IMG/VR virus record: IMGVR_UViG_2698536372_000007
Coordinates: 1 to 7,585 of that record
Reading direction: 5' to 3' (one strand)
From: a virus
Lineage: Duplodnaviria > Heunggongvirae > Uroviricota > Caudoviricetes
Length of the DNA: 7,585 nucleotides
The stretch's first letter is position 1. Every line of letters begins with the position of its first letter. This document shows positions 3,001 to 4,020 of this stretch, piece after piece. The position numbers and the translations under genes were made by a program. The notes under the pieces are model-generated. The model saw only the letters and a list, made by a program, of their open reading frames with translations. It ran no database searches and had not been told where the DNA came from.

Positions 3001-4020
3001 CTACTTGCTAACCACGAGCGGCAAATCCAGTGTTGGTGTGATTTTTGTTTTACGATCGTAAATCAACACCTGATTTTCTGTTTTATGCCCGCTGAAAATT
3101 TGTTTGTCGCGACTGCTGCCTTCGTAATCTGAGATCCCCTTGGCTTTTATGTCGTGAAAATTACACCCGAACGGAACGCCAACTTTTTGCTCGGCTGCGC
3201 GTTTAGCCTGATTCCACCAGTTATTCAGCGTTTTAGCTATGACTTTCCCGCCTTTGGTTGTATTGATCACATATTCGCATGTACAGGAAGATACATTTCG
3301 GGCTAACTGGATCGCTGTACGTAATCGCGGTGACCATTCCTTGATTTGTTTGGTGCCGGTTTTGTTTTGCTCAATGTAGATCCCTTTATCCATAATATCC
3401 TGCCATTTCAACTCAAGCACATCACCGAGTCTTGCCGCACAGAGATAGGAAATCTCCATTGCAATGCGTAACTGTGGAATTGCTTCCGCATATATCGCCG
3501 CATACTGTTCATCGGTGATGTAAACAGTGCGGGCTTTAAGAGAGAATTTTCTGACTCCTTTGCATGGGTTATTCTTCACATACCCACGCTCATATCCCCA
3601 CCCGTATACTCGACTCAGGCTTGCCAGTTCATGATTTGCCTGGGTCTTGCTCTCAAGCCCTCGTTTATCCATGAAAATTCTTACCTGCTCAGTTTTGACA
3701 TTATCAGCAAGCACTTTTCCGAATACCATCAGCAACGCCTTCTGATGTTGTCGATAATCTTTTTGGGTTCGGGGGGCCAGTTCTGTAAATGCAGGGGAGT
3801 CCATAAACATGTGCCACAATTTAGCTACGGTCATTATGTTGTGGAGTTTTGCTTTTTCCAGTTCATAATTTTGCCAGACTTTAGCTACGCTGGTTTTCCG
3901 CACTCTTCCTAGCCCTATACTTCTTGTACTTCCTTCGGGTTTCCACACGTAACTGTAACCATTCGATCTAACCCGCGGTGGCAGTACATTATCTTTTTTA
4001 TTTTTTCTTGGTCTTCCCAT
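3001..4020 (-). CDS. int: Site-specific tyrosine integrase, lambda Int family, 339 aa
   Basis: ATG at 4020 with GAGG 9 nt upstream; TAG at 3001-3003. Alignable by eye to lambda Int: MGRPRKN... N-terminus, ARLGDVLELKWQDI (lambda TGQRVGDLCEMKWSDI), YIEQNKTGTK (lambda YVEQSKTGVK), C-terminal FHDIK...GHK...LIYD carrying the catalytic His and Tyr. Adjacent to a tRNA-derived att core. Confidence 0.92.
   Translation of the reverse strand: MGRPRKNKKDNVLPPRVRSNGYSYVWKPEGSTRSIGLGRVRKTSVAKVWQNYELEKAKLHNIMTVAKLWHMFMDSPAFTELAPRTQKDYRQHQKALLMVFGKVLADNVKTEQVRIFMDKRGLESKTQANHELASLSRVYGWGYERGYVKNNPCKGVRKFSLKARTVYITDEQYAAIYAEAIPQLRIAMEISYLCAARLGDVLELKWQDIMDKGIYIEQNKTGTKQIKEWSPRLRTAIQLARNVSSCTCEYVINTTKGGKVIAKTLNNWWNQAKRAAEQKVGVPFGCNFHDIKAKGISDYEGSSRDKQIFSGHKTENQVLIYDRKTKITPTLDLPLVVSK

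Follow-up and report, generated by a model that had tools for sequence, protein, structure and literature searches.

Lysine at the second catalytic arginine position of an Sp4-type prophage integrase

Is the second catalytic arginine of tyrosine recombinases (Arg II) as invariant as it is held to be, or can an integrase carry lysine in its place and still recombine DNA? This question is raised by a stretch of 7,585 nucleotides from a virus of the Caudoviricetes (IMG/VR record IMGVR_UViG_2698536372_000007, positions 1 to 7,585; hereafter the window), which encodes on its minus strand an integrase related to the integrase of phage lambda (lambda Int). Published frequencies at Arg II of tyrosine recombinases are 99.1% Arg and 0.5% Lys (Gibb et al. 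2010, PMC2943603), and a large 2021 classification describes the catalytic pentad as 'otherwise strictly preserved' and leaves lysine unmentioned (PMC8138268). The original prediction, made from the sequence alone, had assigned Lys to this position and called it an uncommon variant of a nearly invariant residue, which agrees with the published frequencies. The parts of the gene that matter for the question are the following (window coordinates).

3001-4020, minus strand: integrase gene, 339 aa (open reading frame, PF00589, alignment to lambda Int from residue 1, AlphaFold2/Foldseek, identity to ECs_1055)
3145-3156, minus strand: box H289-D290-I291-K292, with H289 as His II and K292 at the Arg II position (codon reading and alignments)
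3145-3147, minus strand: K292 codon, AAA
3430-3441, minus strand: Box I segment C194-A-A-R197 (alignments)
3430-3432, minus strand: codon of R197, which is Arg I
3439-3441, minus strand: codon of C194, in place of the usual Thr of the 'TGxR' motif
3361-3363, minus strand: K220, catalytic Lys of the beta-hairpin (lambda K235)
3058-3087, minus strand: H312 (His III) through Y321 (tyrosine nucleophile)
3085-3087 and 3058-3060, minus strand: codons of H312 and Y321, respectively

Lysine 292 and the Arg II position

Read on the minus strand, window positions 3145-3156 give CAC GAC ATA AAA, i.e., H-D-I-K, as residues 289-292 of an open reading frame (ORF) of 339 aa, just as had been predicted. The C-terminal part of the encoded protein contains FGCNFHDIKAKGISDYEGSSRDKQIFSGHKTENQVLIYDRK. 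The ORF scores 33.5 bits against Pfam PF00589 (gathering cut-off 27.1; profile positions 3-167 of 172), and it matches full-length lambda Int with an E-value of 5.6e-20 in a phmmer search of PDB chains (1z1b). It is identical in 339 of 339 residues to ECs_1055, the Int of prophage Sp4 in Escherichia coli O157:H7 Sakai, and equals WP_001299351.1; a protein identical to it represents a 90% cluster with 1765 member sequences. Taken together, the PF00589 match, the lambda Int match, and the size of this cluster argue that H-D-I-K is no chance motif. On the plus strand, a single ORF of at least 50 aa overlaps the box (50 codons, 3154-3306). NCBIfam offered no specific model for the integrase, with XerC and integron-integrase matches below threshold only.

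Three alignment methods pair K292 with lambda R311, and the by-eye alignment of the original prediction is borne out by all of them. Using phmmer against the PDB chains of lambda Int, nfhdik is paired with tfhelr, which sets K292 opposite R311; further pairs are caarlgdv/tgqrvgdl (R197/R212), eqnktgtk/eqsktgvk (K220/K235), and sghk/lghk. The profile alignment that had been proposed as a check (hhalign, 66-sequence family profile against lambda Int; probability 99.45%, E-value 4e-22) likewise finds Lys and not Arg at Arg II, pairing FTFHDLK with ptfhelR, GHK with GHK, and YD with YR (Y321/Y342). In a MAFFT alignment of 118 relatives and lambda Int, residues R197, D200, K220, H289, K292, H312, and Y321 correspond to lambda R212, D215, K235, H308, R311, H333, and Y342, and C194 falls on lambda T209. 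The six catalytic positions other than Arg II match those of lambda Int one-to-one, and the earlier statement that they are present therefore stands. Against P1 Cre, the family profile matched only locally, over 35 columns at Arg I (probability 1.35%), which is uninformative for Arg II.

The predicted structure points in the same direction. An AlphaFold2 (AF2) model, built on an alignment of 66 diverse family members, reached a mean predicted local distance difference test score of 95.2. Its best PDB match by Foldseek is lambda Int (1z1b, E-value 4.5e-18), with a template modelling score of 0.70 over the full length and of 0.84 when normalised to the 75-356 fragment; Tn1549 Int, XerA, IntI4, XerH, and Cre are matched as well, all of them, lambda Int included, with a probability of 1.00.

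A shifted alignment that hides the true Arg can be rejected. There is no Arg within ten residues of position 292, and the nearest ones in sequence are R304, which swaps with Lys among close homologues, and R323, which is nearly invariant in the clade of Lys-carrying enzymes described below and is the commonest residue in their Arg-type relatives, too. This distribution, the agreement of phmmer, hhalign, and MAFFT, and a predicted fold that is the one of lambda Int speak against such a shift. K292 occupies the position of lambda R311. With regard to the superfamily, Arg I, Asp I, the beta-hairpin Lys, His II, His III, and the Tyr nucleophile are all present, and K292 supplies a basic residue at Arg II in helix K, one turn past His II. 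Solely the strict RKHRH+Y pentad, which has Arg at Arg II, is departed from (Lys, AAA), so the integrase is a tyrosine recombinase outside of the strict-pentad majority.

Distribution of the lysine and of its companion residues

To the question of whether close homologues share the Lys, the answer is clear. Out of 5.8 billion proteins, the 120 best homologues are 55-100% identical to the integrase; the box was located in 117 of them and reads HD[ILV]KAK in every case, and it was not found in the other three, which are proteins of 297 aa. These homologues come from Escherichia, Citrobacter, Klebsiella, Salmonella, Cronobacter, Lelliottia, Kosakonia, Dickeya, Sodalis, and other genera. An unbiased HMMER scan of 1.84 billion cluster representatives retrieved 4736 relatives. 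In the best 150 of these (representatives of clusters at 50% identity), the Arg II column holds Lys in 103 and Arg in 30 cases, and Arg I, the hairpin Lys, His II, His III, and Tyr are kept in both groups. The distant Lys-type representatives are metagenomic proteins. Restricted to full-length proteins, K292 is invariant in 87 of 87 Lys-type representatives, and the position of Y321 is Tyr in 86 of them.

In a quick neighbour-joining tree of 118 full-length representatives rooted with lambda Int, all Lys-type sequences (88/88) fall into one clade, for which parsimony counts one R-to-K change and zero reversions. This is consistent with a single R-to-K origin. A scan of one genome per species, in which the search pattern was the Lys-containing box, so that it is circular for the Lys itself, yielded 338 confirmed loci in Enterobacterales, Orbales, Aeromonadales, Alteromonadales, and Vibrionales. 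At the 80 genomic loci kept and three phage loci, the Lys codon is AAA in 55 cases and AAG in 28, and Arg is a single transition away from either (AAA-to-AGA or AAG-to-AGG). As both codons are in use, the residue appears to have been held through synonymous turnover. Lys-type integrases are also found in cultured or induced phages, which applies to Evi (97% identical to the window integrase), ST64B, ZF40 (induced lysogen), and Fostie, while Pseudomonas phage F10 Int (31% identical) and lambda Int are of the Arg type. Judged from these sequences, Lys is the ancestral and fixed state of a large gammaproteobacterial integrase clade; its interpretation as a defect or a one-off was set aside in favor of a conserved, clade-wide hallmark. 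As a separate observation, several Arg-type sisters (P0163, P0176, P0180, P0227, P0235, P0239, P0262, and phage F10) have Arg instead of His at His II (F-R-D-L-R), in line with a report that His II is less well conserved in the IntBPP-1 subgroup.

We compared 87 Lys-type with 28 Arg-type full-length representatives for covariation. The positions most tightly linked to K292 fall into the neighbourhood of the active site.

Position 194 (lambda T209): Cys in 78/87 Lys-type, Thr in 25/28 Arg-type representatives
Position 195 (lambda G210): Arg, Ala, or Gly in Lys-type, Gly in 24/28 Arg-type representatives
Position 296 (lambda A315): Ile or Val in 79/87 Lys-type, mostly Ala in Arg-type representatives
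Position 310 (lambda L331): Ser, Ala, or Gly in 82/87 Lys-type, mostly Leu in Arg-type representatives

Position 195 is Ala in the window integrase and Arg in 41 of the 87 Lys-type representatives. A Cys three residues before Arg I is found at 83/83 loci (80 genomic and three phage loci). It has been described that a small residue two before His/Trp III goes along with a large hydrophobic residue four after Arg II, which supports the tyrosine (Gibb et al. 2010, PMC2943603). The pattern at positions 296 and 310 matches this alternative packing and suggests that the surroundings of the Lys in helix K were remodelled in a coordinated manner. From the sequence pattern, we infer that the neighbouring changes may compensate for the second hydrogen bond that is lost with Arg.

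We also considered that Lys292 and Cys194 form a purpose-built active-site pair, be it a redox-sensitive contact or bridge or a means of shifting the balance between cleavage and ligation. If true, the Lys would be more than a neutral replacement of Arg, and the activity of the integrase would be coupled to oxidative or SOS stress. Lys292 and Cys194 are found together in 78/87 representatives and at 83/83 loci; a single clade origin explains this co-occurrence equally well, and we regard the idea as highly improbable.

Activity of the Lys-type enzyme and rival explanations

Published work bears directly on the activity of this protein. After treatment with mitomycin C, both circular excised Sp4 (attP junction PCR and quantitative PCR) and packaged Sp4 DNA were detected, from which it was concluded that the Sp4 integrase mediates excision (Asadulghani et al. 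2009, PMC2669165). Excision was also measured for ST64B (PMC12455584), the Int of which is of the Lys type and 50% identical to the window integrase. A further natural integrase, Pal_Y-Int_1, in which the second Arg is described as 'mutated to a lysine', achieved integration in 18.7% of the P. putida cells that had received the plasmid (PMC12884075). Engineered enzymes with the same exchange retain function to varying degrees: Cre R292K recombines in vivo and in vitro and accumulates the covalent intermediate, and vaccinia TopIB R223K has about 10% of its activity left (PMC2943603). On the basis of the published activity and of purifying selection, we estimate a probability of roughly 85% that the protein is an active integrase in which K292 stabilises the transition state as Arg II would.

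The course of the reaction would then be as follows. The protein would act as a heterobivalent integrase of a serT-inserting lambdoid prophage. After the model of lambda Int, the N-terminal domain would bind the TTGGTATA repeats in the arms of attP, and the core-binding and catalytic domains would bind the 60-bp core common to attP and the tRNA gene serT (both sites are described below). Tyr321 would attack the scissile phosphate, with R197, K220, H289, and H312 as well as K292, in place of the canonical second Arg, stabilising the transition state. K292 would contact a non-bridging phosphate oxygen. The replacement of Thr by C194, the loss of Gly195, I/V296 for Ala, and S310 for Leu would have arrived with the Lys and repacked its helix.

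Several points weigh against this reading. Ligation suffers when this Arg is exchanged for Lys in Cre, vaccinia topoisomerase, or XerCD (PMC2943603), so the natural Lys enzyme may be slower than its Arg-type relatives. Pal_Y-Int_2, a second natural Lys-type integrase, failed in its sole published test (PMC12884075). Our literature search found no biochemical assay of this enzyme or of any K292 mutant. Excision of Sp4 was observed only upon treatment with mitomycin C and after replication of the region, and the host strain has many other integrases, so help in trans is conceivable. Moreover, since the companion changes share one clade origin, covariation alone is no proof of compensation.

An enzyme that is crippled or inactivated by the Lys, with prophages that are stuck or moved in trans and a gene that is a decaying remnant, would fit the partial defects of the Cre, TopIB, and XerCD mutants (PMC2943603), the status of Sp4 as a defective prophage that was excised only after mitomycin C (PMC2669165), and the zero integrants obtained with Pal_Y-Int_2 (PMC12884075). 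We nevertheless consider it unlikely, as full length and the other catalytic residues are kept over at least 88 clusters at 50% identity, and this conservation as well as the synonymous variation at the Lys codon indicates purifying selection rather than decay. Furthermore, some members of the clade come from phages that were isolated as viruses or by induction of lysogens, the serT junctions of Sp4 are precise, prophages with identical Int stand in tandem arrays, and the natural Lys-type Pal_Y-Int_1 is efficient (PMC12884075). Slightly less improbable, though still unlikely, is that a relocated Arg (R323, R304, or Arg195) fills the Arg II pocket and K292 is merely structural. Such relocation has a precedent in IntDOT of CTnDOT, in which another part of the chain provides the Arg I that is missing (PMC8138268), and both the near-invariance of R323 and the frequent Arg at position 195 (41/87) would suit it. 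However, the invariance of K292 (87/87 and 117/117) is unexpected for a position freed of its role, the prevalence of R323 in Arg-type relatives makes it no clade-specific substitute, R304 alternates with Lys even among close homologues, and the window integrase itself has Ala at position 195. That the Lys is an artefact, whether by an error in sequencing, by a mutation specific to one strain, or by a shift in the alignment, is hardly conceivable: the 90% cluster has 1765 members, the int region is 100% identical to several complete genomes, all close homologues with the box found keep the Lys, and the three alignment methods agree, with the fold being that of lambda Int. An active integrase that uses K292 for Arg II hence remains our preferred reading.

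Attachment site, prophage setting, and relation to known integrases

Downstream of int, the window contains an attachment site, and upstream of it lies a gene in the position of xis.

2800-2859, minus strand: attP core, a 60-nt identity block with the 3' part of serT, tRNA-Ser(UGA), from anticodon stem to CCA (direct reading and Sp4 junction comparison)
2707-2799: P' arm of attP, with a hairpin and four TTGGTATA repeats at 2722-2753
2860-3000: P arm of attP, which contains a single CTTGGTATA repeat at 2963-2971 and lies between the core and the stop codon of int
3998-4240, minus strand: 80-aa DUF4224 protein, likely excisionase, i.e., recombination directionality factor (Pfam, PHROG, annotation)

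The minus strand of window 2800-2859 reads CGGTCTTGAAAACCGGCGACCCGAAAGGGTTCCAGAGTTCGAATCTCTGCGCTTCCGCCA, the final 60 nt of tRNA-Ser(UGA) serT, located 141 nt past the stop codon of int. ARAGORN detected no tRNA in the window because only these 3' 60 nt are present. At the tail/effector end of Sp4 in Sakai, serT is intact and the sequence past CCA equals window 2799-2707 (P' arm); at the int end, the same 60-nt block is preceded by window 2860-3000 (P arm) and followed by chromosome toward yccA. As the window holds the core and both arms seen at the Sp4 junctions, its attP is a complete P-O-P' site, which is expected in a free phage genome or at the junction of tandem prophages. The int and attP of the window recur in phage Evi (94% DNA and 97% protein identity). 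Targeting of a tRNA gene, serT, is evident from the tRNA 3' copy in attP and from the intact serT and the 3' fragment that flank Sp4.

Five copies of the octamer TTGGTATA are present in the window, where 0.17 would be expected, and none of 200 shuffles reached five. All five copies are located within the att arms, with four crowded into 32 nt in mixed orientation, and they are probably arm-type Int binding sites. Residues 1-60 of the integrase align with lambda Int 1-60 (phmmer and hhalign), i.e., with the N-terminal arm-binding domain, for which the AF2 model predicts strands at 17-19, 23-26, and 35-39 and a helix at 45-60; no N-domain family was assigned to the integrase by Pfam at an E-value of 0.01.

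The 3' end of the DUF4224 gene overlaps the start of int by 23 nt. Its 80-aa product is identical to Sakai ECs_1056 and matches Pfam DUF4224 (E-value 2e-8) and PHROG 1266 'excisionase' (E-value 1.9e-23), which makes it a likely excisionase. The Xis of Sp4 was judged non-functional, with no DNA-binding motif (Asadulghani et al. 2009, PMC2669165). It may be added that Sp4 excises although its Xis was judged non-functional, and that PHROGs groups the DUF4224 protein with excisionases. A DUF4224 counterpart was detected by tblastn in 13 of 84 related loci, a query too short and divergent to judge the type of directionality factor across the clade.

Regarding the genomic setting, the window aligns to a locus of E. 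coli O103:H2 12009 with 95.5% identity across the aligning region (1-7489), and its int region (2400-4400) is 100% identical to this and other non-O157 genomes of enterohaemorrhagic E. coli (EHEC). The order in 12009 is tyrosine recombinase WP_001299351.1, followed by DUF4224, exonuclease, DUF1482, and dicB genes. In this genome (NC_013353.1, 2.283-2.396 Mb), at least three lambdoid prophages lie head-to-tail; at least two adjacent ones share identical Int and Xis-like proteins, and the tail end of a third follows. A serT-type junction was expected beside yodB at the end of the array; however, neither core, arm, nor tRNA was found there, and the array end has probably been moved or remodelled, e.g., by inter-prophage recombination. 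Near this chromosomal end, close to yodB, lies a truncated YkgJ-family pseudogene (L009 12891-12917) with a 27-nt exact match to window 2361-2387. Sakai Sp4 shares with the window the Int (ECs_1055), the Xis-like protein (ECs_1056), the core and both arms of attP, and serT as the target; the difference is that int in the window adjoins the espK end of another prophage, whereas the int end of Sp4 faces yccA.

Several further genes of the window are worth recording. The type III secretion effector gene espK (828-2189, minus strand) encodes a protein with 435 of 453 residues identical to Sakai ECs_1568, and next to it an ORF of 91 aa (490-765, minus strand), hypothetical in the O103 annotation, is 70% identical to the effector EspO1-1 (ECs_1567). 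Sakai Sp6, the carrier of espK, was rejected as source of the integrase, as its Int is a different protein of 372 aa located at potC. The location of the Sakai espK/EspO1-1 pair in Sp6, together with a different integrase, suggests that the effector cassette moves between prophages. Abutting the P' arm, positions 2578-2718 (plus strand) hold the 3' end of a tail fibre assembly gene, a remnant whose last 12 nt are common to the Sakai Sp4 junction, and positions 2400-2578 match, with 95.5% identity, the final few hundred bases in several records of Stx1a-converting phages. On the other side of int, an 816-aa 'exonuclease' is encoded at 4308-6758 (minus strand), in the position of ExoVIII/RecE. 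Its domain match, the Rv2179c-like 3'-5' exoribonuclease PF16473 (E-value 1e-65), is confined to the last ~170 residues; its first ~630 residues have no Pfam match and contain a long acidic Q/E-rich stretch and a CxxC...CxxC motif. Its length varies between near-identical prophages (816 or 823 aa). Beyond it, a DUF1482 gene and the cell-division-inhibitor gene dicB (6852-7333, minus strand) form a Qin/Kim-type early region; the program-made dicB ORF has 97 aa and a GTG start, and the annotated gene has 62 aa.

Compared with lambda Int (PDB 1Z1B, 1Z1G, 1P7D, 1AE9), the window integrase has the same three-domain architecture, fold, and catalytic R, D, K, H, H, and Y, and, as in lambda, int is transcribed toward attP and a small upstream gene in xis position overlaps its start. 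In contrast, identity is about 22-25%, and Lys stands in place of R311, Cys-Ala in place of T209-G210, Ile in place of A315, and Ser in place of L331; integration is directed at a 60-bp identity block within a tRNA gene instead of a 15-bp attB core, and the directionality factor is a DUF4224 protein instead of lambda Xis. The integrases of Salmonella phage ST64B (Sb28), Pectobacterium phage ZF40, and Escherichia phages Fostie and Evi belong to the same clade, with the box FHD(L/I)KAKG(I/V)SD and Cys three before Arg I. That of Evi is 97% identical to the window integrase, and those of ST64B, ZF40, Fostie, and Escherichia phage vB_EcoS-689R5 are 42-55% identical to it, with vB_EcoS-689R5 Int at 55% by tblastn, the comparison consisting of that match alone. 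Cre R292K, vaccinia TopIB R223K, and the Arg-II-to-Lys variant of XerCD resemble the window integrase in that Lys at Arg II supports cleavage and recombination (PMC2943603). However, these are engineered single changes in an Arg-adapted background, with reduced activity and a build-up of the covalent intermediate, while the Lys of the window integrase is of natural and ancient origin and comes with further changes in its neighbourhood. Pal_Y-Int_1 from Pseudomonas ('Y-BPP1Arm' class), compared by description, is likewise a natural tyrosine integrase with Lys at Arg II, site-specific and efficient (PMC12884075).

The gene is thus an already known, annotated prophage integrase, and natural Lys at Arg II has been documented before. 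A full-text literature search for explicit descriptions of natural Lys-II integrases returned none, and our literature search found no statement that the Sp4/ST64B/ZF40-type clade is wholly of the Lys type, nor any of a single R-to-K change or of the accompanying Cys194, I/V296, and S310. The Lys is a rare, true variant in which a specialist would see a tidy natural experiment and not a surprise, and the understanding of the mechanism is unchanged by it. Regarding practical consequences, annotation or prophage-viability pipelines that rely on the R-H-R-Y tetrad would misjudge Lys-type integrases as defective. Type III effectors are encoded on the prophages concerned (espK in the window, tccP2 and espV in Sakai Sp4), so the mobility of these prophages matters for the evolution of EHEC. 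The apparent lack of reversion, with Arg only one transition away, hints that C194, I/V296, and S310 lock the Lys in, and for recombinase engineering the clade offers a natural background in which to study Lys doing the job of Arg II. For the family as a whole, the 'invariant' second Arg of tyrosine recombinases is replaceable in nature, with an entire gammaproteobacterial clade keeping Lys.

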